Positions 29,968 through 63,969 of a stretch of DNA of 64,000 nucleotides are shown here, in pieces. The stretch comes from Tubulanus polymorphus (Eukaryota > Animalia > Nemertea). The translations under genes were made by a program, and so were the position numbers. Positions within the stretch are counted from its first letter, which is position 1. Each line of letters starts with the position of its first letter. The notes below the pieces were generated by a model, which did no database searches, had not been told where the DNA came from, and saw only the letters and a program-made list of their open reading frames with translations. Location of the stretch: positions 10,705,859-10,769,858 of the forward strand of contig NC_134036.1 of assembly GCF_964204645.1 (NCBI RefSeq), read 5' to 3'.

Positions 29968-29996
29968 TTTAATAACACATTTTTATTAAAATTTGA

Positions 29997-30290: not shown

Positions 30291-30916
30291 TTTCTGTTTC
30301 TTCACAGAAAACCCTATTGAAATTCGCGTGATTATTATTATTTTTTTTTCCCTTTTCCACATAGTTTTTGTTAAAAGTATAAAGGCTTCCTTACCTTACC
30401 GCTGTCGCCGATACAATCCGTATGATGTCCTTCAGCTCACTTCAATCTCCAGATACTGCATGGGAATTTTGATAAATCCACGTTATAAAGGTGTAACCTT
30501 CGATCTGTGGAGGTAAACCCGGTTCTCCGCCATCTGTAACCGGCTGGTTGTTGTATCGGCAGGCTGACTGGGGAACTAGCATTTACACCAGCGGTACAGG
30601 ATTCCATCCATTAGGAACAACAAGGCAGTTAAACCTTATATGTACAATCTTTATTGCATCCCGGAATGAGAATGATTATCATATCTTTACATAGTCTTTA
30701 TATACAGAATCATGAGTATAATGTGAGAACTAGGTGTCAGACAAGTTGTAGACATCAGGACTCACAAACAAACACCTAGTTACATGTTTGAGAGACATTG
30801 ATTAATTATCAATGAGCACTGACTATAGCTAATTATCGTGAAAACATGTTGAGTAATGTCACATGTTGATTACGACCTTAAAGCACATATTGACACTATA
30901 GTCATAAGTTATATTA

Positions 30917-40077: not shown

Positions 40078-41378
40078 GTGGATTGCCCAATTTGCTCGCG
40101 GCCGAAGACTCATATGCCGCAACACCTAAGAGTCGTCCATAAGTGGGGGCGCGTGCGATCGAGAAATTGGAATCGCAGGACGGAGGAAGACATCGGAAAA
40201 TCTCAATACAAGACGCTAGCCCCGTACAATAAGCGCAGATCAATGGTTAAATGTAGTAAATGTGGTTTTTACTTCAGACGGCTATCAAGCCACACTAAAT
40301 GCCTATCACGAGGTAACATCAGGTGCTAGTGACTTTGCGAATGAAATAGTTAATGAATGACCATGTCTTTCATTTTTATCTTTAGATCAGAGCAGTGATT
40401 CGGATAAAAGTTCAGATTCTGAAGTCGAAGAAACCAGCCCCGAAGACAGAGATAGCAGTGAAGAAGAGAATGCGGATGAAAGTGATGTGGAGGAGGTGAC
40501 TGGGGAAAGTGATGAAGAGTAGGAAGAGGAGAGAAAGGAAGTTAAAAGAGTGAAGAAAGTCCATCCCATGATGAAGAAGGGTAAGTCCTACATATTTAAC
40601 TCATGTGTTTGTTCGTGATGACCTAATTCTTATTTTTCCGATAGAATTTGATGAGGAATTCATGTCATGGCTTCGGCCAATGGCTGAAGAGGAGAAAACG
40701 TCGGAGGCGTATGTGCGCGACAGTCGACACTTGCTTGATTTTTGTAATGGCAAGATAACACCTACAAACGTAGTCGAGTGGTTGGAGGTGGAGAAAGAGA
40801 GTGGCAAAACGCCTGGGTCGCTAAAGTCCTATGTACATTCAATAAAGAATCGATTAATCAGGTTCATTCGCGACGTGAGTATAAATGCATGGACCTCCCT
40901 CCACTCGGTGGATGTTGTACCTTAAACCCTTCCCTTGTGCACCGTCTACTTCCCTTCCCTTGTGCACCGTCTACTTCCCTTCCCTTGTGCACCGCGTACT
41001 TCCCTTCCCTTGTGCACCGCGTACTTCCCTTCCCTTGTGCACCATCTACTTGGAAAAATTTTCACCCTAGCCCTTCCCTTGTGCACCGCGTACTTCCCTT
41101 CCCTTGTGCACCATCTACTTGGAAAACTTTTCACCCTAGCCCTTCCCTTGTGCACCGTATACTTCCCTTTCCATGTACACCGTCAAGTAAGAAATCCGGC
41201 ATACCCGACATAACATGCTACATATTGATGAAACTTTTGATTTCCAGCGTGGACACAAGGAATCGGGTATTAGACGCCACATGTTGGATCGGGTGGAAAC
41301 GCGCCTAGCAACATATGCTCAAAAGCTGCGCAAAGAATCAAAAGCAACGCAGCATGAAGTGCATGATAAGCAGCAAAG
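40078..41378 (+). pseudogene. 5' exons of an intron-containing tyrosine-recombinase (Crypton-like) gene; continues at 63712
   Basis: C2H2-like CPICSRPKTHMPQHLRVVH, an acidic exon (40386-40580, one stop), and a helical core-binding-like exon (FMSWL..TSEAYVRD..GKTPGSLKSYVHSIK); GT-AG boundaries. Confidence 0.55.
40926..41172. repeat. ~25-bp pyrimidine-rich tandem repeat (CCCTTCCCTTGTGCACCGCGTACTT)
   Basis: Directly visible. Confidence 0.9.
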
Positions 41379-41412: not shown

Positions 41413-41755
41413 AGTAGTGATGGTGGGTTACTATAGGCCCGTGGTTAAATTGTGGTTGTGGTTAAATCCAAGATGGCGGCTGTCATGTGATCCAAGATGG
41501 CGTCCGTCCAAGATGGCGGCTGTGGTCACGTGATCAAAAATGGCGCCCCGATCCAAGATGGCGACTGCGGTCACGTGATCAAAGATGGCGCCCCGATCCA
41601 AGATGGCGGTTGTGGTCACGTGATCAAAGATGGCGGATTTTGAAATTTCGATGGATGCTCACACCAGCTGTTACCCGATTACTCATGCGATAATCCGCGT
41701 TCGAATAGATTAAACAATACCAAATAACGACAGTTATATATTTCAAACAATGTTA
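41413..41755 (+). repeat. Polinton left TIR with 45-bp internal repeats
   Basis: Reverse complement of 63336-63678 with about 4 mismatches; TCACGTG at 41526, 41571 and 41616. Confidence 0.95.
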
Positions 41756-41800
41756 TTTATTTCAAACCAAGATATATATATGTAATATAGGAATAGCGTT

Positions 41801-43994: not shown

Positions 43995-44462
43995 TTATAT
44001 CAAATTGAAATAATTTACAATATAGTCTGTAACAATCTCATCATTTTCCTTGCTATTATTCGAAAAATACTTTTCAATTTCATTCATATCCAGTCCGTGA
44101 CATAATAATATTTGTACAAACATCGCGTAATAACCACAAGTACTAGACATGACATTTTGATATTGAACAGAGTTATAATACCATTCCTTACAATTTTCGT
44201 GCATATAATCAGTTAATATTTCACCGTAAAAATTCGGTGCTTTGCCGAAAGAGTCAAAGAAAAATCCGATTTTAGATCCGTTTATAAATATGCTTAACCA
44301 ATGCGTACCAGGCTCATACGAATTATCAGTATTTACAATAAAACCATAAGGTTTCAAAATATTTACTGTCGGCATCATATCACACGGAAAAACACCTTTA
44401 AATCGAGGTTTTATACATTCGTCATGTTTCATTAATTCTATAATCTGATTAGTGTATAACAT
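43995..44462 (-). CDS. Adenain-like cysteine maturation protease
   Basis: NTD..PGTHW, FFDSFG, QYQ..SSTCGYY (His-Asp-Gln-Cys). Confidence 0.92.
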   Translation of the reverse strand: MLYTNQIIELMKHDECIKPRFKGVFPCDMMPTVNILKPYGFIVNTDNSYEPGTHWLSIFINGSKIGFFFDSFGKAPNFYGEILTDYMHENCKEWYYNSVQYQNVMSSTCGYYAMFVQILLCHGLDMNEIEKYFSNNSKENDEIVTDYIVNYFNLI

Positions 44463-44467
44463 TATTT

Positions 44468-45781
44468 TTAAAAATCAATGGTAATGTCTCTGTTTTCAGC
44501 GACTTGCAAAACTTCGTCAAACACGGCGAGTAAAACTAAATTTACATTGGTCGGTAAATCTTTATCAAATCGTAACTGAATTTTTAACGATCCGCGTTGA
44601 ATAAGAGACAAATGGTCGTCGCCCAATACAGGAGATATATTGAAAATACACATGAAATTTCCCGCTTTAAATTCGTCTCTTTTAATACCGAAATTCTCGT
44701 TTTTGTATAACATACCTCTCGAAAGTAAAGCGTTGAAATATGCCTCCACCCCATCCCCCTCGGAATCTAAAACCAATGGGCTATTTTGGATGTGAACATT
44801 ATTTACCGTAACAGACATTTCTGCTAAATTGTAATCTAAAAAATTGTAAGGGCATTTTCTATAATTACCAGACATTGCTTCGTCTTCTACAAAACAAGCT
44901 ATTATAGCTCTTGGAATTTCACCTAAAAACAACGAATCTTTAGTAATAGTTCTATGTCCTTTAGGGATATTAATCGTATGCATTTCAGATCGTGTAAAGA
45001 AATATTTCGCCATTTTCTTTCCCAAAGTATTAGCGTGAGCCATTAAAATAGAACTATCCAATTCACACGTTCTGACATGCAGCTGAGCGCTCTCTATTTT
45101 CAATCTATAGTCCGCGTGCTGGTCACCAGACATCAAAACAAAACTATCTTTTGATCTGAGTAGTTTCACTTGTATATCAACGTTATTCAATAGCACTTTG
45201 TCCTTTCTAAACACGTCGGCGTGTAATCTAGTGTACGCGGTCACTAACTTGCTGTTTGTCACATAATCATGTCGTTTCATTAATCCGCTATTCACACCTT
45301 CCTTCTTCACATCGAAATCAGATTTTTTTCCGCTTTCATCTTTTGCGTAAATGTCGCAGTTTAACCAAGAATAGTTTTTCGTTTCGTGGCTATAATTTAT
45401 TTAATTTTCAATTTCACACCTGAGCGGGTAAAGTCCATTGTCGTGCGTTACTATTTTATCGTTAAACGATACTTGGACGTCGCTGAAAGAACTGTTGCAA
45501 CTGTTGATCATAGAAATTGCGTTTCCTTCATCGAGATTATTTCCGTCGGCCCTTACAACTCGGAATTTCAATTTCAAATAAGTTAAATTCAAATCTATGT
45601 ATTTATCAGTTTTTGGAATTCTAAATACTATCGGCCCGTTGTCGCTAATTGAAGTTGATGATTCGTAAGCGACATAATCGCGGTGTTTGTAGCTAAACAC
45701 TGATCCAGGCACTGTAAACAAATCCAGTTCATTGCTCGCGCACAAAGGCGAATCGGGGTCCACTAACAGCGACATTTCCAA
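44468..45781 (-). pseudogene. Major capsid protein (double jelly-roll, PY) with one in-frame TAA at 45401-45403
   Basis: ELDLFTVP, GPIVFRI..YIDL, LLNNVDIQVKL, LFLGEIPR, PYNF, GSLKIQLRF; both ORF pieces share one frame. Confidence 0.9.
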
Positions 45782-45794: not shown

Positions 45795-46214
45795 CTAGTA
45801 GGCTTCTGATTCTGTTAAAGAATCGTTGTGTCTCCTACCACGTGCTACTAAACGTCCGCGGCTGATGCGACGCCGTTTCTTGCCTTTTAAAACCTGTTCC
45901 TTTCTAACGTTGAAAGTTGAATTCAGAGCTTCGCTCGCGGTCTCCGATGCACGGTTTTTAATAGAGACCCCTAACGGCCGTCCTCTTAAATAATCACCGA
46001 AAACCTTGACGCCTGTTTTTATTACGTAAGGTGTAACTGTGGACGCGATATTCTTCAAAAACGGTATCGCCTTACGAGTCAAACCACTCACCGCGGATCC
46101 TAGTCCGCGGCCACCCTGTACGGGGTGTGAGGTGTATATATCTATCCCTGATCCACCTTGACTCGAGTAATATTTACAACACGCGGCGTGATCTATTTGG
46201 CAAACAGTCCTCAC
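45795..46214 (-). CDS. Basic core/membrane-active Polinton protein (PZ-like)
   Basis: YYSSQGGSG..QGGRGLG, resembling adenain cleavage sites; Arg-rich tail; lies between penton and MCP. Confidence 0.65.
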   Translation of the reverse strand: MRTVCQIDHAACCKYYSSQGGSGIDIYTSHPVQGGRGLGSAVSGLTRKAIPFLKNIASTVTPYVIKTGVKVFGDYLRGRPLGVSIKNRASETASEALNSTFNVRKEQVLKGKKRRRISRGRLVARGRRHNDSLTESEAY

Positions 46215-47038
46215 TATAACAGTAGATGTTTTCGTTTGAAATGTAAAACGCAGTTAAATTTCCCTCTACGGAAATAAGGTATTTTACCGGATTCACGCCT
46301 TATAAAGATTTCTATCGTTTGAAAATTATTCTTCTGTACAGGAAAATACTGAGCCTTAGTAAATTCGATACCGACTATTTTTCCGACATGTCCAGATTTC
46401 AAAGCTACCATTCTTAACAAATTCGCGCTTTGACCACCGACCATCTGATGTTTTATTATGTCGGTATAAATCATTAAATTGTGATAATCAGTTTCGATAT
46501 CGACACAGCGCGAGGCGCTCACGTCTATATACTCGTACGAATCAAAATCAGCTCTTCTGACGGTCAACTTGGGTCCAGGCTCCTTGTCCCCTTGCCTTAC
46601 ATCCAGTAACGCGTTCGTGATCGGTATATGTTCTTTGAACCCCAAAATCCATGCAATATCTTCGGTAAAAACCAACGCGCAGTTGTCGTAAAATCTCATC
46701 TTTACTTTTTGTTCTATTTCGTTGAATGTAATTTTAATCTTATCTTTAAAAACCTCGTCTATTTTTTCTTGAATCGCCGCGATTAATTTTTCAATGCTCG
46801 AATATCGACCCTCTGGAATTCTTAGTTCTTTTTCGCCAGTTTTGGGTGTCACGCATTTAAATTTACCAGTGCTAACGTTATAGAAATCAAATACGAAATT
46901 GACTTGTTGCAAAGCGCACTCCCATCTCCCATCGAGTGAGACGGGTGCTCGTAGTTTTACTTTGAAACTGTGCGGCGTATTGTCGGGATAAATGTCAACG
47001 TTCGCGCCACTTTGAAGGTATATGTAAAAGTCGCTCAT
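46214..47038 (-). CDS. Minor capsid protein (penton, PX)
   Basis: MSDFYIYLQS..YPDNTPHSFKVKL..L.GRWECAL, IPEGRY, IYTDII..VGG..NLLR, YFPV, LHFK. Confidence 0.88.
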   Translation of the reverse strand: MSDFYIYLQSGANVDIYPDNTPHSFKVKLRAPVSLDGRWECALQQVNFVFDFYNVSTGKFKCVTPKTGEKELRIPEGRYSSIEKLIAAIQEKIDEVFKDKIKITFNEIEQKVKMRFYDNCALVFTEDIAWILGFKEHIPITNALLDVRQGDKEPGPKLTVRRADFDSYEYIDVSASRCVDIETDYHNLMIYTDIIKHQMVGGQSANLLRMVALKSGHVGKIVGIEFTKAQYFPVQKNNFQTIEIFIRRESGKIPYFRRGKFNCVLHFKRKHLLL

Positions 47039-47855: not shown

Positions 47856-50800
47856 CACGACCGTAGGCGAGATACGAATTTTAGAAATTGGAACAATCGA
47901 TATCTTAAAATCGATGGCGTGCGCTGATTGGCCGGGCCGTCTCGCTAATGCTTAAAGATATGGCCGGAGCTGCGTCCGGAAAACTTCGGTAGCTCAGCTA
48001 TTAATTATGGGATTCGAACCGAACGTGTCTCAACTTGTAGACAACATTCAAATCTAGGGAACTAAAGAGCCGATTTCGCGTAACTTCCACCAAATCCGAG
48101 TACGGCGCGCTCAAAGAACCCGGAAGTCAACAGATCAATTTTGTCCGATTTTTGCTCTTCAAAGTACGTATTTTTGACCCTAATGTGCCTTTTATTCAAA
48201 ATCTAAGACTTTAGTTCTCTGAAAAATTGGATAAGCTGTCCAGTGATACCCAATTTATGAGGTATTTTTGCTTCAATAGTGAAGGCAGGACGAATTTAGA
48301 GTTCAAAAGTTTGCAATTCTGAAAAAAAATTTCAGCGCTCGTGGCCTATCGTAATTGATATGTTCTTTTCTGTATATCAAGTGAATATAAGCTTGTCAAT
48401 GACTATTATTTTTCAGCTGATGATTCTATAACATTGATCTGTTGACAATGCCTGTCGATTTTGATGAGATGCCCGTCGATTTTGATGAGATGAAGGTAAA
48501 TTTAAGAAAAATAAATTCAATCATTTTTTATTGCCTTTTCATTTCTCTTTGTATAAGAAAAGGCTGAAATTCAAACGGTTTTCTTTGATTTTTAGATGGA
48601 AGAATCAAATAATAAGCGCAAAAAAGGTTTCAACTTTGGCCACGGCAGGAAAAAGAAAAAGTTTGCTGATAAAATGAAGAGCATGAGTGAGTAATAGGCG
48701 GCTAGGCCCTATACAGACTGCATGAATTACAACTTTTGGCCCATAAAATGTATGATTACTATTGTTAATTCACAAAATAAGTCTGCGGTTACATGACCTT
48801 ACCGACCTGAACCTTCAGTTGCAACCATTTGGCTACAGCAATATAGCCAAGGACCCAATTTCATTCCATTCCCGAGGTATGTCATGTAATTGCAGATACT
48901 TTGTTAAAGAGTAAAGAGGTTTTCGCTGCAGAAATACATTAAGACTTGTTCAGAAAGAGATTTCAATTTCCGTATCCCAGTGTTAACCTCTGATCTTGAT
49001 GCTGTTTCATTGTTCGAGACCATATTTTGTATGAAAATGTTTCTTTTTTTGTGGAATAAAGTGGAGTATAATTATCATTTAAATTGTAACTCTTCTGCAT
49101 TCTTTTTCTTGTTATTTTGTTTTTCTTTCGTCATCGTTTGATAGTCAAAAGCTTGCTCAACCCGGATGAGTTTATTCCAGAATTAGGCCAAAATATGTGT
49201 GTAAACCTGGTTCAGTCGGAATAATTAGGGATATACTATCCGATTGATGCAAATTTGACTGTACAACGAACGTGTCGGCATTCACATCCAGGAAATCGGG
49301 TTACCTACTCAATTTTTGACGGGACCAAAATTTACTGCGGCATGTTTCGATTCATTCGATCATGATTTGCTGAACACAAACTGGAACAATTTCATAGGAC
49401 AAATGCCCCCAGTAAGCAGGATCTACTGTTTCACCAATCCAAGAGGACCAAAGACTAGCCTGGAGTGAAAATACAAAATCAGAATAACCAAGCCATAGAT
49501 AGTGTATACATGTATGATAATATTTATTTTGCCCTAAAAATTTACAACATTTCACTATATACAACGGAGCAACGCAAAGACTGTAAGTACATTATTGCCT
49601 CATTCTTTCATTTTTGTTAAGTTTAGATTAAAGGTTATTACTAATAAACACCCAATTAAGAAATAAAAAAAATACTGTCTTAATAATTTGACAAACAGTA
49701 CAACGTTTAATCATTCATAACATCCAAGATAAGTGCAAAAATCAATAAATATCAAACATTGAAATTTTGGAACAAAATTAAATATACAAACATTTAAGTA
49801 ATGCTCGCTTTATAACCTGATTTGTTGATAGGATCGTGTATCGGTAGTCGTAACAGCGCTAAATCAGATGAGAGTACCAGCGAATCCCTCGAGCTAAGTG
49901 CAATATCATCAGCATCAACTACTATCAATCCCGTTGACTCAGATATTGCAGAACCAGAGTCATCTTATGAGATATCGTATCAGTCTAGTTCAACTCCTAA
50001 AAAACAGCCAGCGCCGCCATCCATTTCCCAAGAAAATGTAGATTTAAAGGAAAAAGTGCGTCAGCTGGAGCAGGAACTTCAAACTATCAAATGTATCCAA
50101 CAGAACAAAAATACGCTGATCATCTGTGATGGAGACGAAGACAAAACAATTTTCAGAGCTCGAAATACATATAAATCGAAATCCCGAGACAACTACAACT
50201 ATTTCATCAAATTTGATGAGCCGAAGATACAATCCTTAGATGCTGGTGAAAAAACTCTTGAGAAGCGAGCATCCCTGTTGAAACTTATAATCCAATTCAT
50301 CTCCAAAGATAAAGACCAATCAATTGAAAATGCTGCCAAAACAATATCGTACTTATTAAGAAAAGACACATCCATTAAAGAAAAGGTTATTTCCCATATT
50401 CCCGATATGAAACCAGCGCGGATGCTCACTGCTCAAGAGTACCTTGAAATCAAAATGCATCTTCGACTGACAATGACCCAGTCTTTGGAACTAGGAAAAC
50501 TTTTACGACTGTACAATATCAATATTTTGCCATCAGCTGACAAACTGCGCGAGGAAATTAACAGTCGATCTGAAGCTTTAAAAAACAATCTTGATGTAGG
50601 TCAAGCCGAAATGATTGTAAATTCGAGAACCTCGGAGAGAAAAACAACTGCGTACGCTAAAGTGAATAGTTTCCGTGTTCAGTTACTTGTAAAAATTAAA
50701 CGTTTGTCTGAAAAAGGTCAACTGTTGTTTCCTGCAGAGGTTCATGGTGAAATATGGATTAAGATTGGGGCGGACAAGGGGGGAGGTAGTACGAAACTTG

Positions 50801-53765
50801 TATTTTCAATTATCAACTGTAAATTGTGCAATAGTACAGACTTTACAGAGATGATCGCGTATTTTGAAGCTGTAGATTCATATGAGAATATGGAGCAGGT
50901 TTTCTCACCAATATTTGATGAGATGAAGACTATCTCTAGTGTAGATATTGTAAATAGTGATGGAAAATATGTAGCCGTCGCGATCCGTTTTTTTCTATTT
51001 GGTGACCTTGCCTTTTTGTGCACATGTATGGGTCACCAGGGTTCAACGGCCAAATTTCCTTGTTTGTGGTGTCAAGTGAAGCTGGATGACCTAAGAAAGC
51101 ACCACGGCTCACCACATTGTCCACAATCGGTGAAATTTGAATCTCGATCAGTTGCCCTCTATAAACAGAATGTAGCAAATCCAGGTGCTAATAATTTAAG
51201 TGTAGTGAAAGCTCAGATGTTTCACCTACAGGATATCGATCATTTAGTTCCTCCTGGACTTCATATCTCCCTGGGACTTGGCTTACTATTTTTCAACATG
51301 TTAGAAAAAAAATGTCAAGAATTTGACAACGAATCTTTGGGGGAACGTGATGAAACACTTTACAGAACCTGGCAAGAAATTTCAACAAAAACATCGGAAG
51401 TCCAAGAGGAACTAAATGATCTTTCAAGTCGTATTGATACGAAATGCAAATACTTACAGAAACTCACTACTGCTAATAGACGTGGTCGATGTGTTGTTTC
51501 GTGTACATCGAAAATTTGTCTAATAAGGACAATTGAGAATCCAAATCCGAATCGGTATATATATTGTATCAAATGTGACGCTCCGTACCATGAGCAGTGT
51601 ATCGAAGATTGTCCAGATTTTGAGTGTGAACTATGCCTTACAGGAAAACAATTGTCGGCCAACAAAATCATCAGATGCATCACTGAAAATCTGGCCAACC
51701 TTAAATCCAGACAAGTTGAGTTAAAAAAGGAATTCCAAAAGAAATCAAGTGAGTTAAATGCTGTGTACAGTAAAGTTCAGGCCCAAATGGGACCTTTATG
51801 TAAGACATTAAATCAAGTCCTGATAGAAATCGGCGTTGATCGTCAAGCGTATCATAGCAATAGTTTTGTAGGGAATCATATTCACAAGTTGCTAAACAAC
51901 GCGGAAAAATTATGCAAAGTGATTCCCGACGAATCGATTAGTTCCTTGTTCCAAGAGTTGTTCGAACGACTACGTTCGCTATATCGATTATACAGCGCAT
52001 CTCGGTTTCTTTCTAAAGACGAGATATCCAATATGACAACACAATGCCACGATTTTGGCCGCTTTTTTACGTCTAAATTTCCCAATGTAAATATCACTCC
52101 GAAAATCCATATTCTAGTATACCATGTTCCCGAATTTGTAAATATGTGGGGAACACTTGGCTTGTTCAGCGAGCAAGCTCTTGAAAGCAAACACGCTAGT
52201 GTCAATCGAGATAATCGGACATTTTGCAGCATACGCGACAATGTTTTACGCTCCAAACTTCTCTTCCAAAACCAGGCCTTGTATGCGACGAAAACATTAG
52301 AGCAACCGGCGTCTGTTCCACGTAAATGCAGTTGCGGCGGTTTCTATAAGAAGTGTCTAGCCGATGGAAAATCTGTAAAGAAATGTAAATCGTGTCAGAA
52401 AATTGCCGAATGATTTTGATGTAACTTGAATTATCTGAGTAAATCACCTGTAACTCTATACATGTTAAAATTCGATAGCAATTGTGTAAATATTTTTCAA
52501 ATTACCTTGAAATATGTGGTAAGCTTTTCTATAAATCTCTAATTGATTGAGTCGACATTACTGATCAGCAGGTAGCTATGTAAGATCCTGAAACGTGAAT
52601 AGTGTACGGAAGTGAACAGACACAACTGTATGGAAATACGGTCAATGTCGTGATAATAAAGCTTTAAATTCTTTTCTCAAATTATGCACTATGCTCCAAA
52701 TCATTCATTTCGAATCAGCATTTTAATAAGTATAGGTGGCAGGTATTACGATCCGTCCCTGATTATAATGAAATCATGGATCATCACCCCTTTCCAGCCT
52801 ATTCCAGCCTATCATATTCACCAGAAAGACCTAACTAGAAAGAGGACTATGAACCCCAGAATCTTACAACGATAGGCCAACAGCCCAGCATTCTAGACGG
52901 CACTTACTTGTAACGTTGATGCTAAACACAGTTATTGACAGTCTTATAATCCAAATTTGCTAGTCGTCAACGGACTTTTGCTCTATAATTCAATGAAGTA
53001 AGGATCATCAATCAACTGAAATGAAAGGATATAAATAAAATCATTATTAGTCTTGTGGAACTACCCCAGAAACTCTCCAGTCAGGAAACTAATGTTTAGG
53101 CCTATCAACTCTTTTTATTGTTTCTTATTCTTATCTTTTTTGAAGTCATAATAGACTACCACAGACAACCCAAACCACAGCCTAGACCCCTTGGCCAACT
53201 AATGATGCGGTTTGAGGTGGCTGTCGATTGATACTTTAATTTGAGGTCAAATTGATTGATTTGAATTGACGACGCACGTACTATTTCACATGGAATTTTT
53301 ATCTTTTGAAGCCTAAATATCGAAACTTACCTCTCATCGTTGGCCATCGCTAGTTATTCATATTCTCTTATAGAATATATGACGTGAATTACTTAGTGAA
53401 ACCATGTTGAAAGCTAATACTGCGCTAAGAACTTCGCGAAATTCACACAATTCTAATCAGCTGACTGCGATGTTTTTCTACCCGCGACCGGTTGACGACG
53501 CAGTGTCGTGTTGGTTACTTCCTTATACAAACATATTGTATTTCAATTATTTTATCATTTCGATGGAAAATATACGGCTAATTTATTAATTGAGAGACAA
53601 ATAAATCAACTTAGGCGGGTATATTGCAAAAAACACGATTTTACGATAACGCTAACGTAAACGACTTGCCCTCAACAGGTGCTCCACAGGTGCGCGGATA
53701 GGTGCTTGCAGGTGCGCGGTTTAAGGTCAAGGTGAATTCGTTTTTCTATTACGCCTACGGTCGTG
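47856..53765 (+). mobile_element. Chapaev-like DNA transposon, copy 2, inserted in the Polinton integrase
   Basis: Same 14-bp TIRs; 4-bp TSD GATT (47852-47855 / 53766-53769). Confidence 0.92.
49822..52413 (+). CDS. Chapaev-type DDE transposase with internal PHD-type finger
   Basis: Differs from copy 1 at two residues (IKLD/IKFD, FQC/FEC). Confidence 0.85.
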   Translation: MLIGSCIGSRNSAKSDESTSESLELSAISSASTTINPVDSDIAEPESSYEISYQSSSTPKKQPAPPSISQENVDLKEKVRQLEQELQTIKCIQQNKNTLIICDGDEDKTIFRARNTYKSKSRDNYNYFIKFDEPKIQSLDAGEKTLEKRASLLKLIIQFISKDKDQSIENAAKTISYLLRKDTSIKEKVISHIPDMKPARMLTAQEYLEIKMHLRLTMTQSLELGKLLRLYNINILPSADKLREEINSRSEALKNNLDVGQAEMIVNSRTSERKTTAYAKVNSFRVQLLVKIKRLSEKGQLLFPAEVHGEIWIKIGADKGGGSTKLVFSIINCKLCNSTDFTEMIAYFEAVDSYENMEQVFSPIFDEMKTISSVDIVNSDGKYVAVAIRFFLFGDLAFLCTCMGHQGSTAKFPCLWCQVKLDDLRKHHGSPHCPQSVKFESRSVALYKQNVANPGANNLSVVKAQMFHLQDIDHLVPPGLHISLGLGLLFFNMLEKKCQEFDNESLGERDETLYRTWQEISTKTSEVQEELNDLSSRIDTKCKYLQKLTTANRRGRCVVSCTSKICLIRTIENPNPNRYIYCIKCDAPYHEQCIEDCPDFECELCLTGKQLSANKIIRCITENLANLKSRQVELKKEFQKKSSELNAVYSKVQAQMGPLCKTLNQVLIEIGVDRQAYHSNSFVGNHIHKLLNNAEKLCKVIPDESISSLFQELFERLRSLYRLYSASRFLSKDEISNMTTQCHDFGRFFTSKFPNVNITPKIHILVYHVPEFVNMWGTLGLFSEQALESKHASVNRDNRTFCSIRDNVLRSKLLFQNQALYATKTLEQPASVPRKCSCGGFYKKCLADGKSVKKCKSCQKIAE

Positions 53766-54057
53766 GATTATCGTTATGTTTCGATATGTTGGAAACGTCA
53801 CACAAATCGGCTTGAAATTGTGAGTTAAGTCTGTACGCGACGGTTTTGTTTCTCGGAAATCGTTTCCGGGCCGGTGCATGTAGGGTGTATACTTCCTGGC
53901 TTAACAACCAATCTTTAATTTGTCTTCGAGAAATCTTCTGACCGTTTACTTTTGCTAGTCTGGTTAGAGTTTGAACGCTTCCAAAAGAACCGGGATGTTT
54001 TGGTGTGAAATATACTTTTTTCAACCACTTGTTCTGCATTTCCGTCAACTTTGTCAT
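53766..54057 (-). pseudogene. Polinton integrase, N-terminal part
   Basis: YFTPKHPGSFGS..WLLSQEVYTLH..FQADLCD; joins HRFILVTID in frame when the insertion and one TSD copy are removed. Confidence 0.9.
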
Positions 54058-54435
54058 TATTATCAATTACGATTGAATTACCTCGACAACAAGAGGAAAT
54101 ACAATTTATTTTACTAAACTTGCAGTTCGACTCTAAATTTTTATCGGCTAAACAGCAGCACAATTTCAATACCTTACTACACATGTTTGCAAATAATTAT
54201 AATAGAGATGTTTACACGCGGTATGTAGCCTTTTAAAGGATCTTATACCAAACCAGGTTCGTAATAAAGAAATGAAACTCTATTTCCTGTTTGAACATAT
54301 TTATATGCCATTAATTTCCGGTTTTACAAATTAAAAAGGGAAAATACCAAAAGGTTCGACAAAATTCCCGATTGAGTAAACTTGGGTTTGATAGAAAATT
54401 TAATTACGCAAAATTAGGTTTGAACATTTTTTATT

Positions 54436-54732
54436 TCAAAAAATCATATAAAGTTTCTTTATAACATACTTCTGAGTGGGTAATGTTTTAGTTAATTTTA
54501 TACAAAATATCGCGCCAACAATTTTACGAAATAGATTACCGGACATATCGAGTTCCTTTAGAATCGTTTTTAAGCTATTCACGTCACTACGTTTTTCGAC
54601 GAAAGTTGTCACCATACGATTGATGTCGTCTAGATAATTTCTAGGTATAAATATCACGTATATGTGTGTCATTTCGAATAATCCGTATAACATAAATCTC
54701 ACAATCTTCTCCATAATCATCAGCATCATCAA
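54436..54732 (-). CDS. Hypothetical Polinton protein
   Basis: ORF packed directly behind the TBP-like gene; no motif recognised. Confidence 0.3.
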   Translation of the reverse strand: MMMLMIMEKIVRFMLYGLFEMTHIYVIFIPRNYLDDINRMVTTFVEKRSDVNSLKTILKELDMSGNLFRKIVGAIFCIKLTKTLPTQKYVIKKLYMIF

Positions 54733-54734
54733 TA

Positions 54735-55288
54735 TTAATACGACTTTATAAAGTTTTTTTTAAAAGAGTCGTGACAGAGAAGGATATTTAAAAGAATGTT
54801 AGAGTACACATCTTCTATAACTCGTTCATTTCTAGCTCCTGTTAAGATGATTGTTCCACCGTTATGTACGATACATTTTATTCCATTTTCCGCTGTATAA
54901 ACGAGTCCGGGAAATATTTCTGGTTCATAACTCGAGCTGCTACCCAGCAAATTGTCAAGAGTTTTCAGAGAAATTCGTTTTCAGTTTTCTTCACAGCCGA
55001 AATAGTTTGTACTTTGAAATCGGAAAATGTAACTTTATATCCCAACTTTTGCACTTTTCGACCAAATTGTCTCGCTGCTTGTTTGTTCCGAGATATACTT
55101 TTCGAACCCGTTATTACCATTTTACCATTTCTAAATAATAAACAAGTTCCATCGACTTTCCGATGTTTCCATATCGCTCCACTGAAATTACGTTTGTTGT
55201 AAATAATGTTACTTTCTGTATTAGCTAAACTAGTTAGATCAATTTCACAGTTTAAGCAAGCCGTTCCGACCACGTTGACTATCTCCAT
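54735..55288 (-). pseudogene. TBP: TATA-binding protein (TBP)-like core, intronless, with a 1-nt frameshift at ~54980
   Basis: Repeat 1: IVNVVGTACLNCEIDL..YNKRNFSGAIWK..TCLLFRNGKMVITGSKS..AARQFGRKVQKLGY..FSDFKVQ. Repeat 2: RISLKTL..SSYEPEIFPGLVY..GTIILTGAR. Confidence 0.9.
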
Positions 55289-55399
55289 TTTAATGACGAT
55301 TCGTGTATAAACGGGTACTCCGTGTAGACAAAAGAAGAGAGCGACATATGTTGTCATTACATAATAATAATGATAATAGTATTTATTGTTAGATTCGTA

Positions 55400-56095
55400 T
55401 TAAAAGAAGATCCATTTATTACATTTGACTTTATTTCGTTTCACAACTTGTCGTCCAGAACCGCGCTGATTGACATCGGACTCGTCATCTACACCGAGAA
55501 CTAAGGCTCTTTTACGCTTAGGCTTCGCATCAATGGTAAGAGAAGTCATTTTTATCATATCGCGTAATTTACCATTATTTACGAGCGTTACGGGTATATT
55601 TAGTATTTGGAACGTTTTGACAAATTCATCCATACCCGGTGCGTTAAAATTGCTCGACTGAACCATTGACGTATATAACAAATCAATCAAATTACTATTC
55701 GGCACTAAAATTCCCTTGAAGTTTATTTCCATACGTTCGTTCCAGTCTATCAAGTGAGAATTATTCTTAAACATACGTAAAATCTGTCCCGATTTTTCAT
55801 GATATCTTTGTGGTAAAAGTTTGAGAATGTTATCAATTTCGAATGGCGTTTCATGTTGATGTTTTTCTTCTCTTTCCGCTTCGGGTTCATTCTGTATTTT
55901 CTCTGGTACGTCGGGTATCTGCGTAGGTGAATCCCTATCTTTCAAGATTTGATGTAAACGTTGATTGTAAACGAAATAATTCTTTTCATTCGACAAAACA
56001 GTTTTGTCGTCGAGTTGTCGTTCTTCTAGATATTCTTGTAATAAGGTCAACATTGATTCGGGTACGATAATGAGTTTCTCAACAGGGTTAGCCAT
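55400..56095 (-). CDS. Conserved Polinton protein of unknown function
   Basis: WNERMEI..VPNSNLIDLL..PGMDEF..LNIP pattern familiar from Polintons; QRGSG near the C-terminus. Confidence 0.65.
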   Translation of the reverse strand: MANPVEKLIIVPESMLTLLQEYLEERQLDDKTVLSNEKNYFVYNQRLHQILKDRDSPTQIPDVPEKIQNEPEAEREEKHQHETPFEIDNILKLLPQRYHEKSGQILRMFKNNSHLIDWNERMEINFKGILVPNSNLIDLLYTSMVQSSNFNAPGMDEFVKTFQILNIPVTLVNNGKLRDMIKMTSLTIDAKPKRKRALVLGVDDESDVNQRGSGRQVVKRNKVKCNKWIFF

Positions 56096-56531
56096 TTCTA
56101 ATTTTGTTTTCGATCGTTGCTCCTATAGCAGCTCCTGCTGCACTAGCCGCTAGACCACCGAGAGCGGGTAATAAAGCCGGTAATAAGAATGGCAAAGAGC
56201 CACCTTTTTGCGAAATAATTTTCCGTTTGTGTTTCCCTGCAAGAGATTTGTTTGCTAGCATACGTATGTATCGTTTATGCTGTTTCAAAACGCGTTTCTC
56301 TTTTGCACTGTGCGGTATATTTCCGACGAGCGAATTCATACACATTTCCGACAAACATTTAATGAATCCTAAAGGCGCATTGTCAACAACTCCTTTTCTT
56401 AGTTTCCGATCAGATGTTGCCAATACGTGTAGATGGGGCGTATACTTTTTAATATTACTATGCTTATCGGGTTTGCGACGTTTCGCGGGTAGTACACTTC
56501 GCGACTTGGCCATCCTTTTAATCATATTCAC
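56088..56531 (-). CDS. Basic Polinton virion protein (PW-like)
   Basis: IKCLSEMCMNSLVGNIP..KRKIISQKGG followed by an amphipathic LPFLLPALLPALGGL segment. Confidence 0.7.
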   Translation of the reverse strand: MNMIKRMAKSRSVLPAKRRKPDKHSNIKKYTPHLHVLATSDRKLRKGVVDNAPLGFIKCLSEMCMNSLVGNIPHSAKEKRVLKQHKRYIRMLANKSLAGKHKRKIISQKGGSLPFLLPALLPALGGLAASAAGAAIGATIENKIRNG

Positions 56532-56567: not shown

Positions 56568-57215
56568 TTAAGTTTTTCTCGGTTTATATACAACGTGGTA
56601 TTTATCGCTAGGTAGAATGCGGGTCCTTATACGCCATCTATCTTCCGTGTGAGGTTTGAAGTCCAATAACAAATATCCGTGAGGATTTTTAGTAGCATCT
56701 TTGAACGCGTATTCGACTTCCTTCCTCAGACCGGCTTGTTGCGCTAGAGTTTTTATTTGATTTCTGTCCCTCGCCGACTTGAACGCTATTATATAGTGAC
56801 AATTAAGACTAATGTTTCTGAATTGTCGCCCTTTGGGAAATAAATTTTGAACTATAGTGATCACCGATATGTTTTTATGGTGTGACCCCTTTGTATAAAT
56901 GACCGCTAGATTTTTGTCTGACGCAATTTCATCCATCAAATCATCGATAATTATCAAAGTACGTTGACTACCATCTATATTTTCGTAAATCTCTGATGAA
57001 AATCCTTGAATAAACGTCACCCCTTCATCCTGTAGGTCCGCGAATAACTTCGACTGCGCTTCCCCGTAAAACCAGTAAATTTTCTCTGGCGGTTCGTTTA
57101 TAACTTTTTCTTTGATGATGTTTTTCACGAGTCATGTTTTTCCACATCCGGTGGGACCACTAACTAAGGCGGTCATCGGGTGAATCAAATTTCGAGGGCC
57201 GGTATATTCAGTCAT
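56568..57215 (-). pseudogene. A32/FtsK-like packaging ATPase with premature stop at 57132-57134
   Basis: Walker A GPTGCGKT immediately followed by TGA; Walker B LIIIDDLM; HHKNISVITIVQNLF; PHGYLLLD. Confidence 0.92.
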
Positions 57216-57349
57216 TTAAAAAAACTATATTACACGCTTTTTTCGGGTATATCGAGTATATGTTTAAGTATATCTCTTTTAATGATTGATAAAATGTATA
57301 ACTAATTTTCCGGGGGTTTGTTATATTTTTCAGAAAACAAAAAGAAAAA

Positions 57350-57530
57350 ATGGTGCATTATTGTAAAATTTGTGGAAAAACGTTCGAATACAAACACGTA
57401 CTCGAACGCCACGAAATGACGCATATCGGCAAGAAAGGGTTTAAGTGCTCGTTGTGCGGGAAGGCATTCGGTAGGAAGGATGCCCTGGTTCGACATATGA
57501 AGTCGAGACAACACCGACTATCATCACCCC

Positions 57531-57562
<32 letters not shown>

Positions 57563-57802
57563 GATCCGTTACCGCACGTGTCATCACCCGCAGCGAGTAG
57601 TAGTACTTCAATGACGAATACAAAATCTTCCGAATTCCGATGCACGTGGTGTACCAAAGTGTTTGGGAGCGTAACAGGGTTGAAAAAACACTCCGAAGTT
57701 TGCATTCAAAAACCCAGTACCAGCGAAGAAGAACCGAAACAGAAAAGGAAACGAACAGACGCATACGACGAAATAATAAAAGACGGTGTTACGTTACGAA
57801 GA
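57350..57802 (+). CDS. C2H2 zinc-finger exon (two canonical fingers plus one variant), probably spliced to pPolB
   Basis: [12 protein letters not shown] and [11 protein letters not shown]; phase-0 donor GTATGT at 57803. Confidence 0.75.
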
Positions 57803-57907
57803 GTATGTATCGCTTTACTTTTATAAAGAAGCTATATATTTATAAAATATAAGTTAATGTGAAATATTTTCAATGTTTTAAAACGTTGTAATTCATGGTC
57901 TTTCCAG

Positions 57908-60900
57908 ATGCATCGGCAAGAGAGTAAAAAGTTTTCGATGAAAACCGATGTGTTTAAAGCAACCCTCAACATGCCCGATGACGACGAACCATCGAACGAT
58001 ACTCAGGATGACCAACCGCCTGAGATTAGTACACTCATTCGTAATTCAATAAATACAATCATGGAGGGAATCTTCGAGATGATGGGTGCCACTGATCGCG
58101 ATCACATGAGGTTGTCAATCGAACATCCCGATTTAAACGGCAATATCAACTTTCCGCTGATGAATGTCAGGGAACTCTCTTTAGAGTTCATAGTAGATAC
58201 GATCGGAAAGGTGTTGCAATCGCATGAATCGTTGGATGTGAATGGAATAATTTTCCATTGCATTTTTATTAGACTACCCGAAGGCGGTGGTTATAAGAAA
58301 CGCGTTAGCGTGAATCTAGAAAATTTCACGAAAACGAAACGATCGATTGTACGCATTATCAACCCCGACGACGAGATATGTCTGGCGAGGGCACTCGTAG
58401 TAGGTAAAGCGCTAGCCGACAATAACCCCGCATACGACCAATTGAGACATCCAGAAAAGTGCGCTCAACAAACAGCTGCTATACAATTACACCATGAGGC
58501 CAACGTTCCAGTCGGTCTTTGTGGTTTAGGTGAGCTAGATAAATTTTGCAAAACCGTTTTGAAACAATACCACGTGATTGTTGTCACCGGTGATAACGTC
58601 AGTTACAGATATCTTTATGAAAACGGGAAACCCGATTGTGAACGACATATTATTCTTTTATATTCCGATAACCACTTCGACGTTATCAAATCGATGACAG
58701 CATTCACGTGTAAATCGTACTACTGTTTTAAATGTAGAAGAGGATTCAAATCGTTGGAAAACGACAAATGTAAAAACATTTGTTCTTTATGTTTAGGTAT
58801 AGATTGCGTTAAGCAACCCGGTGTATTCTATTGCGCTAGGTGCCGCATATATTTCAAAAACGAGTCGTGTTTCCTTCAGCACACGACTCGCAAAAATAAA
58901 TTCGGTTCGGTAATGTGCGATCGAAAAGCACGTTGTCCCGGTGTATTCTATTGCGCTAGGTGCCGCATATATTTCAAAAACGAGTCGTGTTTCCTTCAGC
59001 ACACGACTCGCAAAAATAAATTCGGTTCGGTAATGTGCGATCGAAAAGCACGTTGTCTCAGTTGTAAAAAAATTGTCGCACGAAATCAATTAGACGATCA
59101 TAATTGCGGGTTGAACTTTTGCAAATCGTGCGGTAAAGATATGCCCCTCGATCACCTCTGTTACATGCAACTGGTCACAAAAAAGTCTAACGACGACGAC
59201 GACGATGAAAAGGTCGCCGAAAAATCCACCGAATTCGTCTTGGAAAAAAAATTAATATCGTTTGACTTCGAGACGATGACGGTGGATGGTACGCACAGAG
59301 TTATTTTGGCGTTTGCGCACCGTACGTGCGGTACTTGTGCTTTGACCAAAAGAACCGCCGATTCGACATGTAGCGATTGTGGGAAAAACGAGCACATATT
59401 TACCAGCGATACCTCGTTCTGCGAATGGTTATTTTCAGAAGAGAACCGAGGGTCGCTGGTGTTTGCCCACAATTTCATGTCATTCGACGGTTACTTTGTG
59501 TTAAGGTTTCTAGTGAATCAGGGCATTTTACCCGAAGTTATCCCTAATGGCGGTAAAATCATGTCCATGTACGTGAAGCATTTGAATATGCAATTTTTAG
59601 ATACATTAAACTTTTTACCCATGAAATTGGCAAAATTACCATCGACGTTGGGGTTAATTGAATTAAAAAAGGGGTATTTTCCCTATCTCTTCTGCCGGGA
59701 GGAAACTTTGAATTATTCCGGTCCGGTACCCGAATCAAAATATTATAACCCCGACGGAATGAGCGAGAACGATCGACAGCAATTTCTCAAATGGCACGCC
59801 GAACAGCTTGAAAAACATTTCGATATGCAAACCGAGCTAGTCGAGTATTGCCGCTCGGATGTCGATATTCTGATGCAATCCGTAGTCAAATTCCAAGAGC
59901 TATTCTATAGTATTACGAGTGTCGACCCATTCGACGGTTGCATCACGATCGCCGCAGCGTGCAATCTCGCACTCAGATCGCGTTTTTTAAAACCCGACAC
60001 GATTGGTCTCATACCACCGGGTGGATATAAACCAAACGCAAAGTATTCAAAAATGGCTGTTCGGTGGTTGAAATGGTTGGCGGTGGAAAAAAATTTGGAT
60101 ATCAAACACGTTTTGAACGGGGGTGAAGTAACACTCGGTAAATTTAAGGTAGACGGCTTCCACGAAAAAACACGCACCGTCTACGGGTTTAACGGGTGTT
60201 ACTTTCACGGTTGCCCCGAATGCTTCCCGGTTAGAGGTGACCCGGTAGCTTGTAACAGAGGTGGTCGTACGTTTGACGACGTGTATCAGGCTACGTTACG
60301 TCGTAAGCACGAGTTGGAAACAATGGGTTATACTGTTGTGCAAATGTGGGAACACGATTACAACCGTAAGATTCGTGACGACGTAAATTTTAAGTCTTTT
60401 GTGGAACGTGTAACTGTTTTCGACCCCCTCGAACCTAGAAAATGTTTCTACGGGGGTCGAACTAACGCCATAAAGCTTCATCATAAAATCGTCGACGATG
60501 AAAAAATCAGCTACATCGACATTTGCTCTTTATACCCGTACGTGAATAGTCGATGTAGCTACCCGATTGGGCACCCAGATGTTATCACTGAAAATTTCAG
60601 CAGCGATATATCTGAATATTACGGTCTAATCAAATGCTCAATTTTACCACCCCGGGGTTTATTTCTGCCCGTATTACCATACAGGTCCGGTGGTAAATTG
60701 ACGTTCCCACTTTGCGCAACATGCGCCAACACGTGTAACCAACACGACGTATGCACGCATAACGAAACGGAGCGCGTTCTTGGTTACGCTAGAGGTGGAG
60801 AAAGCCATAAGTTTGGGTTATAAAATCATTCAAATTCATGACGTCTGGCATTGGAACTCACATGCAACGGGCCTGTTCAAAGATTACATTAATCAATTTC

Positions 60901-61784
60901 TTAAAGTGAAAACCGAAGCCAGTGGGTGGCCGCGCGATAATATGTCAGAGGCTGAAAGAGATAAATTCATAGATGATTACAAATTTCGGGAGGGGGTTCA
61001 TTTGGAAAAAGAGAAAATCAAAAAGATTAGTGGCCTTCGAACTGTCGCGAAGTTATGTCTAAATTCAATGTGGGGGAAACTCGGGCAGAAACAAAATAAA
61101 ACTACATCGAAATATATTTCCGACCCGGGTGATTTGTTCGCCATGATAAACGACTCGTCGTTAGAGATCAGCGATGTGTTATTGTGCAACGACGGGATTG
61201 TACGCGTACACTATAAAAAGGTCGACGACGCTGTCGAAATGAGTTTGAGAACAAACGTTACTCTAGCCGCATTCACAACGGCGCATGCGCGGTTGATATT
61301 ATATATCTATATGGAAAAATTAGGGGATCGAACCCTATACTCAGATACGGATTCCATAATATACGTTCACAAACCGGGGGATAGGTGCCCCTCTACTGGA
61401 GTATTTTTAGGGGATATGACCGACGAGTTATCGGGGGATTATGGGGAGGGGGCCTATATCACAGAGTTTGTATCGGGAGGGCCAAAAAATTACTCGTTTA
61501 ATGTGTACTCGCCGCGGGATAAAAAGTATTCCACGGTATGTAAAGTTAAGGGGATATCGCTTAACCATAGAAATAATAAAATAATAAACTTTAATTCTAT
61601 GTTAGAAATGGTCGTCGACGGGAAATTTGATCATTTGTACGTTAATAACCCGAACAAAATTACTAGGCTAATAAAAACGTGCGACATTGTAAATAGAGAT
61701 GAACGAAAGATTTATCGTGCTGTATATACGAAACGTGCGTTTGTTCCGGGTACACCGCACATTACCGTTCCATTTGGTTTTTGA
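57908..61784 (+). pseudogene. Protein-primed DNA polymerase B, frameshifted at ~60780
   Basis: CLARAL..HFDVI N-terminal domain, FDFET, AHNF..FDG, KGYFPY, YCRSDV, YGGRT, DICSLYP, KLCLNSMWGK, YSDTDS, GPKNY, KVKG. Confidence 0.95.
58817..59056 (+). repeat. Perfect 120-bp in-frame tandem duplication within pPolB
   Basis: 58817-58936 = 58937-59056 (PGVFYCARC...KARC twice). Confidence 0.95.
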
Positions 61785-62274
61785 GAAAAAATGAGAAATT
61801 ATGAACGAAAACTGTTTTTTGTATATTTTACCCATATGGTTTGTATCGATTTCGTTTTATATCATTTACGCATAAAGAACAAATGTTTTTACATTTATCG
61901 TTTTCCAACGATTTGAAGTAAACAACATATTTTACCCGTATTGTTTGTATCAATTTTGTTTTATATCATTTACGACGTACATTAGATGTATTACCGTAGT
62001 AAGAATGATAACTTTTTTTTTTTGGTTGTATATTTGTAAAATCGGCAACTATGCTCTAATCCTCAAATTTCCGATGAGTGTTGTAAAATCCAGATATTCC
62101 GTTTTATATTCTTATTTCAATATATATCATATGTCACGATCCATATATATACCAGAAGAATGATGAATGAAAAGATGTTTATTCTATATTATTTTTATAC
62201 TTTTTATTACGTATTCATAAAGAGATCAATAAATTATACTTTTATTTTTACGCTTATACATATATGATTGTTTT

Positions 62275-63188
62275 TTACTTAAATGAAATATCGAAGTACT
62301 CAGGGCATTGCAGTATATCTGACGTGTCATCATCCGGACAAAATAAACATCGATCCTCCTGATTTTCGTGAAAACAGATTGACATTTCTTCTAGTTCCGG
62401 TGCATCGTGCTCGAAATTGATAGCTTCTAAATTTTGCCACTGCGCGAGAGACAACGTTATACCGGTACTGGTGGCTTTTGTTTCACCGACGACAACGTCT
62501 CTAGTATATTTTCTAATGTCAACGCAAATATGCCCTGAATGTAGTGAACGGTATATTTTTAAATAGTTATTTCGACCTAAGCTGAACATGCCTTTGTGTA
62601 AATGATTGTTTTTTACGGATAAGATATCATCCTCGATGGCTGCTTTTCGACGGTTTAGATTTATCCATTCCTCCAAATACAACGAAATTCCACACTTTGT
62701 AGGGAATAGTTTCATTTTACGATTACAATCGTGCAATCGTATGTCGATTCGTTTCTTCCCCTGCCACAATTTTACAGACGCATATACCCTCATTCCTATA
62801 TAGTGAGGATCCTGGTTGAAATTCGCCTTGTAGGTTTTACATTCTGTATTGGAGACTTGCCGTAATGACTGCGGTGTTAAAACATTGTCCGTAGCATTTT
62901 CATCGTGGAAGCCTGAAAAAGAAAACGAAATAATTATTATTAACAACGACTGTCATGAAAAGTGACCCCGCTACATGATATCCCCCCCTAAGTTAAAAGT
63001 ACAAAGATATTGAAAATTAAATTAAATCAAAAATTTAACGTACCACTAAAATCCAATTTTAGATTGGGGTATTTTCCTCTTCGTTCCTGTAAGTTAAGTT
63101 TTTGACGCTTTTTCGGTGCACACATATCATCGACTTCTACGATATGCAGAGACTGCAGAGAGAGATACGATGAACTAGTCGGCTCCAT
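62275..63188 (-). CDS. Tandem PC4 (p15 coactivator/ssDNA-binding) domain protein; exons 63188-63044 and 62912-62275
   Basis: Two repeats: IG..VYASVKLWQGKKRIDIR..PTKCGISL..EW and LG..YLKI..VDIRKY..ATSTGITL..QW. A GT-AG intron joins an upstream ATG exon containing PKKRQK in frame. Confidence 0.85.
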
Positions 63189-63335
63189 TTTAATATATTC
63201 CTTTGCGATCGTGACGATGTTTACCCCTTGATGGCTGGTAACTAAATGATAACTTTTCGACCTATGATGTAAATCTATTGCATAAATATTCTTGCCCGCA
63301 CTTGTTTTTGTGTCGTGGCAATGGTTTCACATATG

Positions 63336-63678
63336 TAACATTGTTTGAAATATATAACTGTCGTTATTTGGTATTGTTTAATCTATTCGAACGCGGATTA
63401 TCGCATGAGTAATCGGGTAACAGCTGGTGTAAGCATCCATCGAAATTTCAAAATCCGCCATCTTTGATCACGTGACCACAACCGCCATCTTGGATCGGGG
63501 TGCCATCTTTGATCACGTGACCACAGTCGCCATCTTGGATCGGGGCGCCATCTTTGATCACGTGACCACAGCCGCCATCTTGGACGGACGCCATCTTGGA
63601 TCACATGACAGCCGCCATCTTGGATTTAACCACAACCACAATTTAACCACGGGCCTATAGTAACCCACCATCACTACT
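63336..63678 (-). repeat. Polinton right TIR
   Basis: Reverse complement of 41413-41755. Confidence 0.95.
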
Positions 63679-63711
63679 CATACATACATACACTGCACGC
63701 AATGACTAAGG

Positions 63712-63969
63712 GTGAATTTTTCCTGTCATGTTTACTGTGATGATGTTAAAAAAATTCTACAATCGGAGACATCAAAAGCAGCAGTAGAACTGATAAAGAA
63801 AAAGCCGACGTCGTTGACTGCAGAGGAGTACTGCATTGTACGCAACTTCGTGTTGTTCGTGGTTACTGCGTTGGGAGCAAGCCGCCCTTCGCTAACCGTT
63901 GGCATTACCCCGAGCGCGATTAATGATGCGAAGAAAGATGTCGATAATACGTATACGATCAAGGTATAG
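63712..63969 (+). pseudogene. Continuation of the tyrosine-recombinase gene (first catalytic Arg region)
   Basis: VRNFVLFVVTALGASRPSLTVGIT...YTIKV resembles YR box I; the window ends before the remaining catalytic motifs. Confidence 0.5.

Follow-up and report, generated by a model that had tools for sequence, protein, structure and literature searches.

Introduction

Most nucleocytoviruses encode their own RNA polymerase. The beta- and gamma-herpesviruses encode viral TATA-binding proteins (vTBPs; KSHV ORF24, EBV BcRF1 and HCMV UL87) that serve late promoters with a TATT box (PMC12529657, available text). By the same text, ORF24 is a large, multidomain protein that needs five other viral factors, has no TFIIB stirrup and keeps N159. 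TBP genes also occur sporadically in mirusvirus-like elements (PMC10675990, text available in part). The legend to Fig. 5 of Starrett et al. (2021; PMC8502044) labels a 'TBP' in MELD viruses with adintovirus-like PolB; in the accessible text of that paper it is a label only, given without analysis, count or promoter, and the carrier element and its clade are not stated there.

Here we describe a Polinton of Tubulanus polymorphus that encodes a TBP of its own, found in the window (the whole 64,000-nt stretch of DNA that was analysed). As with the MELD viruses, so far as their text goes, this is a TBP-like gene in a Polinton-like setting. With the herpesvirus vTBPs, as the available text describes them, it shares an element-encoded TBP fold and a variant TATA box before late genes, both read from sequence on the Polinton side, and probably the use of host Pol II. 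It differs from ORF24 in being a bare core of 170–184 aa with the stirrup kept and N159 replaced by Thr (34–36% identity to cellular TBP). Of the further marks of the herpesvirus system, namely six factors, ORF24-type domains, a missing stirrup and TATT, none was found: the protein is core-only, keeps the stirrup and goes with a different box. Pfam scans, which could miss remote homologues, detected no other viral initiation factor beside the Polinton TBP. The Polinton protein would work like the herpesvirus late vTBP switch, yet outside that system. Nucleocytoviruses and mirusvirus-like elements have short TBPs too, and a scan with short TBPs that keep N159 gave two large-virus loci (L043 and L044) with core-only TBPs in large-virus gene contexts; these differ in keeping N159 and are 29–34% identical. 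Unlike most nucleocytoviruses, the Polinton encodes no RNA polymerase. Among predicted viral proteins, even the best structural matches do not exceed 20% identity, a search of viral contigs with three family alignments gave no family member, and the ESM Atlas returned generic TBP clusters only.

The author of an earlier note on this DNA was aware of no description of such a gene. The MELD-virus legend is a precedent for the label, but no analysis of a Polinton TBP or of its promoters was found in the literature searched (figures, bioRxiv supplements, Repbase and most subscription journals lay outside the search). The terms 'TBP' and 'TATA' gave no hit in PMC11131425, PMC11161782, PMC11296320 and two 2026 Polinton preprints, and TBP gave no match in one text supplement of PMC8502044.

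Results

The host Polinton

Polintons are defined by long terminal inverted repeats, AGTAGT ends and a 6-bp target-site duplication. The element in the window is a 22.3-kb interval bounded by 357-nt inverted repeats with AGTAGT ends (left, 41413..41769; right, 63322..63678; 98% complementary). A 6-bp duplication, CATACA, is present, and is weak evidence because it sits in a CATA microsatellite. Polymerase and integrase both have Pfam matches (PF03175, E 4.8e-38; rve, E 3e-7, slightly under the curated cut-off) and both are broken here. The ATPase and protease matches are weak, below cut-off; the ATPase of a related metagenome locus, L007, passes Pox_A32, and a Walker A motif is present. No Pfam match to double or single jelly-roll capsid proteins was found in the window, and the putative capsid names come from size, order and conservation across loci, and partly from a likeness that we presume.

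The minus strand carries, in this order, an A32-like packaging ATPase (56568..57215; weak Pox_A32 match, 80% identical to L001, in-frame stop near its 5' end), ORF145 (56088..56525; a basic protein conserved across loci, probably a virion core protein), ORF231 (55400..56095; a Polinton gene conserved in the loci compared), the TBP gene, ORF97 (54436..54729; missing from L001 and L003), ORF89 (53915..54184; a small gene, by comparison of loci, that overlaps the integrase start), a retroviral-type integrase with a chromodomain (47040 to approximately 54057; rve and Chromo matches; frame-shifted and split by a nested transposon), a putative minor capsid protein (46214..47038; named from its position), ORF142, a putative major capsid protein (44468..45775; named from size and position, split by a stop) and an adenain-type protease (43995..44462; Peptidase_C5, E 0.006, weak, and comparison of loci). 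A C2H2 zinc-finger gene (57350..57826; Pfam), divergent from the ATPase, and the interval holding the polymerase gene (57863..61784) lie on the opposite strand; a gene for a protein with two PC4 domains (62275..62793, minus strand; Pfam) lies near the right end. The earlier note had placed the TBP gene in the minus-strand block, as is the case, and between integrase and virion genes, which is not: it has the ATPase and core-protein genes on one side and the integrase on the other, and the capsid genes lie beyond the integrase.

The nested transposon (47856..53765, plus strand), which accounts for ~5.9 kb of the interval and is outside the system, has CAC...GTG ends and is, we presume from its features, Chapaev-like. 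The window holds a second, inverted copy (1911–7814). The two are 99–100% identical, each with a 4-bp duplication and an 865-aa DUF1280 ORF, and the transposon was recently active.

This copy of the Polinton is dead: ATPase, integrase, capsid, polymerase and TBP genes are all interrupted. Among 26 reads of run X5 at the TBP break, 19 do not match the window in length there, and at the major capsid stop all 26 of 26 differ. The X1 contig (1,140 nt) also departs from the window at the TBP break and is otherwise identical; X1 may be the sample from which the window came, hence X5 alone is independent. At least some of the lesions are private to this copy or to the assembly, and the window Polinton is a dead member of a family of which other copies do not have at least some of its lesions. 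Other X5 reads match only the middle of the TBP gene (55009–55123) and then diverge, and three skip the whole TBP region (54100–55508), which suggests that a more distant TBP-bearing family and deleted copies are also present in the species.

Several smaller features were noted. The polymerase gene contains an exact 120-nt tandem duplication (58817–59056), and a 47-nt inverted pair (58745–58791 and 61871–61917) joins its interior to its 3' flank. Within each terminal repeat (41449–41641 and 63456–63642) is a set of three 45-nt units bearing the words CACGTG and CAAGATGGCGGC, which we take to resemble E-box and YY1 sites. Probable fragments of a tyrosine-recombinase gene flank the Polinton (40575–40925, a weak integrase SAM-domain match, E 0.01; 63706–63969, by eye). 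Since both flanks look like one such gene, the Polinton may have inserted in another mobile element.

A core-only TBP with an altered C-terminal repeat

The TBP gene (54735..55288, minus strand) starts at the ATG at 55288 and has one frame break near 54,980, so that its halves lie in two frames; read through with an X, it gives 184 aa. Both halves match PF00352, the Pfam TBP family (54968–55288, E 2.7e-22; 54738–54980, E 1.6e-9). A search of solved structures gave a best match at E 9e-25, and the first half matches 35 solved TBP sequences. No intron was seen in the window gene, nor any poly-A or repeats of its own around it. The broken two-repeat core of ~184 aa reported in the earlier note is thus borne out, as is each of the motifs listed there (RNFSG, LLFRNG, EIFPG, YEPE, CIVHNGG and VQTIS).

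Canonical TBP has four intercalating Phe together with N69 and N159. In yeast numbering, which agrees with the table of PMC12529657, the window protein retains F99, F116 and F190, has His for F207 and Thr for N159, and so is not a canonical TBP. The changed residues singled out in the earlier note are real, but they are not peculiar to this copy. Across 158 family rows (a tally that leaves out P0283, a canonical TBP), Thr replaces N159 in 97%, and V161 gives way to Ser or Thr in 99%; F207H marks the window subfamily and some others (13%). Three further DNA-face residues are largely retained (F116 96%, N69 91%, F99 81%, with Tyr in a further 14%), as are the partner surfaces, namely the TFIIB stirrup (E188 94%, E186 75%) and helix 2 (R137/Y139/R141 92–93%). 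Helix 2 of TBP is a site at which partner proteins bind. The PF00352 matches and two repeats of the window protein are joined by a fold model of an intact relative, P0003, which is a TBP saddle (pLDDT 93; TM 0.96 to human TBP). The family thus has the saddle of cellular TBP and TRF2/TBPL1, and differs from these in having no N-terminal extension and in the N159T and V161S/T changes of nearly all members.

The TBP belongs to a conserved Polinton family

Three intact relatives, 61–66% identical to the window TBP, have QTI[TS] and CIVH[NT]GG in common, and searches of 1.84 billion representatives together with a profile search gave well over a hundred core-only proteins of ~170 aa. The family forms one clade among 153 rows (SH-aLRT 96) and in a 72-row tree (99/96), in which canonical TBP stands apart (98/89) and the sole TRF2-like row (P0141, which we take to be such from its features) falls elsewhere; the group had been set by residues before the trees were built, branches are long, and two short rows (P0068 and P0118) were dropped from the first tree. 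The family lies outside TRF2/TBPL1 both in sequence, because these have lost three of the four Phe and the window protein keeps three, and in the position of P0141 outside the clade. Nor is it nested in the cellular TBP clade, the two being separate in this long-branched tree.

A metagenome scan gave 42 loci. Two are not of the family (L025, a canonical TBP; L042, prokaryote-like), and many of the 40 family loci are near-duplicates. In 30 of the 40, Polinton core genes lie beside the TBP gene (tblastn). The other ten comprise five with a PC4 gene, one with the pre-integrase gene, and four of 1.1–1.3 kb with no called genes. L001–L004 repeat the gene order of the window, minus ORF97. The TBP frame is open in 33 family loci, cut by a contig end in two and broken in five. 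A blood-clam gene model (P0262) joins a family TBP to the start of a Polinton integrase, and with a family member from a mussel this indicates that the hosts include molluscs. PC4-domain genes adjoin the TBP gene in many loci (L008–L036), where an element often has two or three of them, and some follow a hydrophobic stretch.

Between L001 and L003, dN/dS is 0.153 for the TBP gene and 0.05–0.25 for other core genes; over all 33 pairs with a usable synonymous distance the TBP values are 0.11–0.45 (median 0.15). These ratios indicate that the family TBP is under purifying selection. TBP and integrase distances correlate (Spearman 0.69, 17 loci, 0 of 5000 permutations). The TBP gene is therefore real, conserved and family-wide. 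The earlier note had named two findings that would speak against its proposal, absence of the TBP from sister copies and a neutrally decaying retrocopy within the host TBP clade. Sister elements hold an intact TBP in the same gene order, and the family is a separate clade under selection, so that neither came to light. The retrocopy reading, a host TBP that landed in one element and has since decayed neutrally, could appeal to the window copy being intronless and broken. It is refuted by the intact orthologues in order, a dN/dS of ~0.15, the clade outside cellular TBP and the reads, most of which do not have the break, and we give it practically no chance.

A variant TATA box before late genes

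In the window element, L001 and L003, the top 7-mer in 130-nt upstream windows is TTAAAAG (12 of 30 windows; 5 of 10 virion-block genes). In 1000 random orthologous draws, the top word, whatever its sequence, attained 12 windows only 12 times; p-values are too small, since the loci are related, the sequence upstream of genes is rich in AT and the motif was first picked out by eye. Adding the variants TTTATAAG and ATTATAAG gives the consensus WTTAWAAG. On the minus strand of the window, ATTAAAAG lies at 57276..57283, 68 nt ahead of the ATPase ATG (at -33 in L001 and L003), and twice ahead of ORF145 (56565–56558 and 56522–56515), a pair common to all three related elements. TTTAAAAG lies at 54230..54237, 53 nt ahead of ORF89 and hence of the ORF89/integrase pair, and at 45884..45891, 116 nt ahead of the major capsid gene (-96 and -95 in L001 and L003). 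TTTATAAG lies at 46299..46306 ahead of ORF142, with the same word at -89 in L001 and L003. An antisense ATTAAAAG (55399..55406, plus strand) is found at the ORF231 stop, upstream of the TBP gene, and in the same place in L001 and L003.

No WTTAWAAG precedes the TBP, polymerase, zinc-finger or PC4 genes in the window, L001 or L003, and the exact box is missing before five of the ten virion-block genes (ORF231, TBP, integrase, minor capsid and protease). The polymerase gene of the window has TATAAA at -86 and -67. Some second boxes, at -9 to -22, leave too little room before the ATG to act as TATA boxes; the idea that ATG-close second boxes serve the next ORF gained no support when tested. TTATACA was considered as a shared motif and dropped, as it has no fixed place. 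Runs of boxes occur before the major capsid gene or inside the gene preceding it in L036 (~2300–2500, its minus strand) and L040 (2468–2531).

Other subfamilies use NNTAAGAR in place of WTTAWAAG. Over 25 non-redundant loci, TAAGAR precedes 41 of 59 late-type but only 2 of 37 early-type genes, and its frequency in random windows is 9%; 'early' and 'late' are assigned from gene type. The count leaves out near-duplicates, the four window-subfamily loci, L005–L007 and the two non-family loci, as well as genes with no start or with <130 nt upstream. Of 51 sites, 21 fall between -31 and -40. Early genes of these loci show no excess of TATAAA in front (8 of 37 versus 9 of 59 late genes, p 0.43). The late box precedes one of 14 PC4 genes. 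The two box types are nearly exclusive, with 6–7 WTTAWAAG versus 0–2 N[AG]TAAGAR on the sense strand of the window subfamily, and 0–2 WTTAAAAG versus 4–16 N[AG]TAAGAR on both strands of nine other loci, counts that are not independent because the loci are related. The boxes of three subfamilies are WTTAWAAG, CGTAAGAA and TATAAGAA.

Box and DNA face vary together

The C-terminal repeat of TBP contacts the 5' half of the box, residues 194, 203 and 205 facing base pair 2, and V203T is one of the three changes of TBPm3, which admits TGTA, a box that wild-type TBP cannot bind (PMC1636458, available text). In the window subfamily the N-terminal repeat is canonical (N69, V71, F99, T112, L114, F116, K120, V122 and T124), and so is the 3' half of the box; the C-terminal repeat is altered (N159T, V161S/T, V203K, L205I and F207H), and box positions 1–2 read WT for TA. 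V122 and T124, which belong to the N-terminal repeat and are kept in the window subfamily, are changed in TAAGAR elements. Where box position 6 is G, residue 124 is mostly Asn or Gln; it is Ser in L017 and L024, and Thr is kept in L027 despite the TAAGAG box of that element.

At box position 2, G is found in 13 of 15 proximal boxes of Thr203 elements versus 0 of 16 others; these elements thus have the V203T of TBPm3 together with a G at the base pair that residue 203 faces. On the TBP tree a single change accounts for the combined G2/Thr203 state (branch support 75/75). On the integrase tree it takes two, and one clade of such elements is rejected there (p-AU 4e-7). The state thus goes with the phylogeny of the TBP rather than with that of the integrase. 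As the link comes down to one or two events, and the group was defined once an earlier tree had been seen, it is suggestive and falls short of proof.

Several of these positions are polar in the herpesvirus protein as well. ORF24 has V122N, T124N, V161N and L205S in the text available, and the Polinton family has V122N in 34%, T124N in 46%, V161S in 76% and Thr, Asn or Ser at L205 in 74%. The parallel is at the same residue positions, apparently reached by an independent route.

Discussion

Because a variant TATA box is common to the packaging, core, integrase and capsid genes, we suggest that the element TBP is probably a one-protein late-gene switch that binds this box and recruits host RNA polymerase II. 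Host TBP would first transcribe the early genes (polymerase, TBP, PC4 and zinc finger). The element TBP would then sit in the minor groove of the variant box with its C-terminal repeat over the 5' half, and the acidic stirrup and basic helix 2, both kept, would let host TFIIB and other TBP partners dock. Pol II would start about 25–30 nt downstream of the box and transcribe the packaging, capsid and integrase genes. The suggestion in the earlier note that a captured TBP could redirect Pol II to promoters of the element is directly supported at the sequence level, since the late-gene box and the TBP vary together. Against the switch stand the five virion-block genes with no exact box in front, the lack of TATAAA enrichment at early genes, the crystals of wild-type TBP on two single variants, and the ATG-close second boxes and conserved antisense box, for which it does not account. 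A late-gene factor reserved for the element, with a box to match, points to a virus-like cascade that Polintons run themselves in the nucleus, and offers a direct handle for tests; it bears on the timing of Polinton genes and on whether particles are made without help.

We put forward more tentatively, at somewhat under even chances, a wider reading: that a wide animal Polinton family carries the smallest known eukaryotic promoter-specificity switch, a bare TBP that plugs into host TFIIB and Pol II and, like an alternative sigma factor, reads a private box. Box and protein would have co-evolved and moved together between elements, and the proteins would be natural altered-specificity TBPs, one of them repeating a TBPm3 change. 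TBP is among the most conserved proteins known, and a family whose DNA face had been rewired along with its target would amount to a natural residue-to-base code and would provide, if true, possibly compact orthogonal promoter–factor pairs.

The late-gene switch has to be weighed against other uses of the same protein and boxes. The boxes might be real promoters whose reader is host TBP or the polymerase of a helper large-DNA virus, with the element TBP boosting them or being incidental. TAAG is the baculovirus-type late motif and is the core of the commoner box, although in the window only one of the seven minus-strand boxes contains it; some boxes lie 9–22 nt from the ATG, but the sites cluster at -31 to -40 as TATA elements do. 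Wild-type TBP has been crystallised on single variants, T(-30) and G(-26) (1qna and 1qn5, from the entry titles), so host TBP may bind some boxes, whereas CGTAAGAA carries the G at position 2 that blocks wild-type TBP (PMC1636458, available text). Since the box also tracks the TBP tree, we regard reading by the host or a helper virus as unlikely, with an appreciable residual chance.

Alternatively, transcription of the host or of the element might be dampened, by a decoy that sequesters TFIIB, NC2, Mot1 or TAF1 or by a repressor bound at the box. The partner surfaces are better conserved than the DNA face, and the antisense box upstream of the TBP gene in three elements, like the paired boxes over likely start sites, could repress. 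F116, F99 and N69 are nevertheless retained in the family, and a pure decoy leaves unexplained both the restriction of the box to late genes and its covariation with DNA-face residues. The decoy option of the earlier note gains no support here, and we allow dampening a small chance. That the protein bends DNA for integration or packaging, the boxes being architectural sites, might be supposed from the TBP gene usually adjoining the integrase (integrase N-terminal matches lie near it in 25 of 42 loci), but the boxes precede start codons and are not at the termini, and the TFIIB stirrup is conserved; this we consider very improbable.

A second gene block lies elsewhere in the window (~25000–30400, minus strand). 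It is very AT-rich (21–31% GC), includes a SLATT-like gene (weak match) and is probably the remnant of another Polinton-like element. In four of the seven genes examined a T-rich run leads into a TAAATG start, an arrangement reminiscent of poxvirus late promoters, which would hint at a helper-virus-dependent element.
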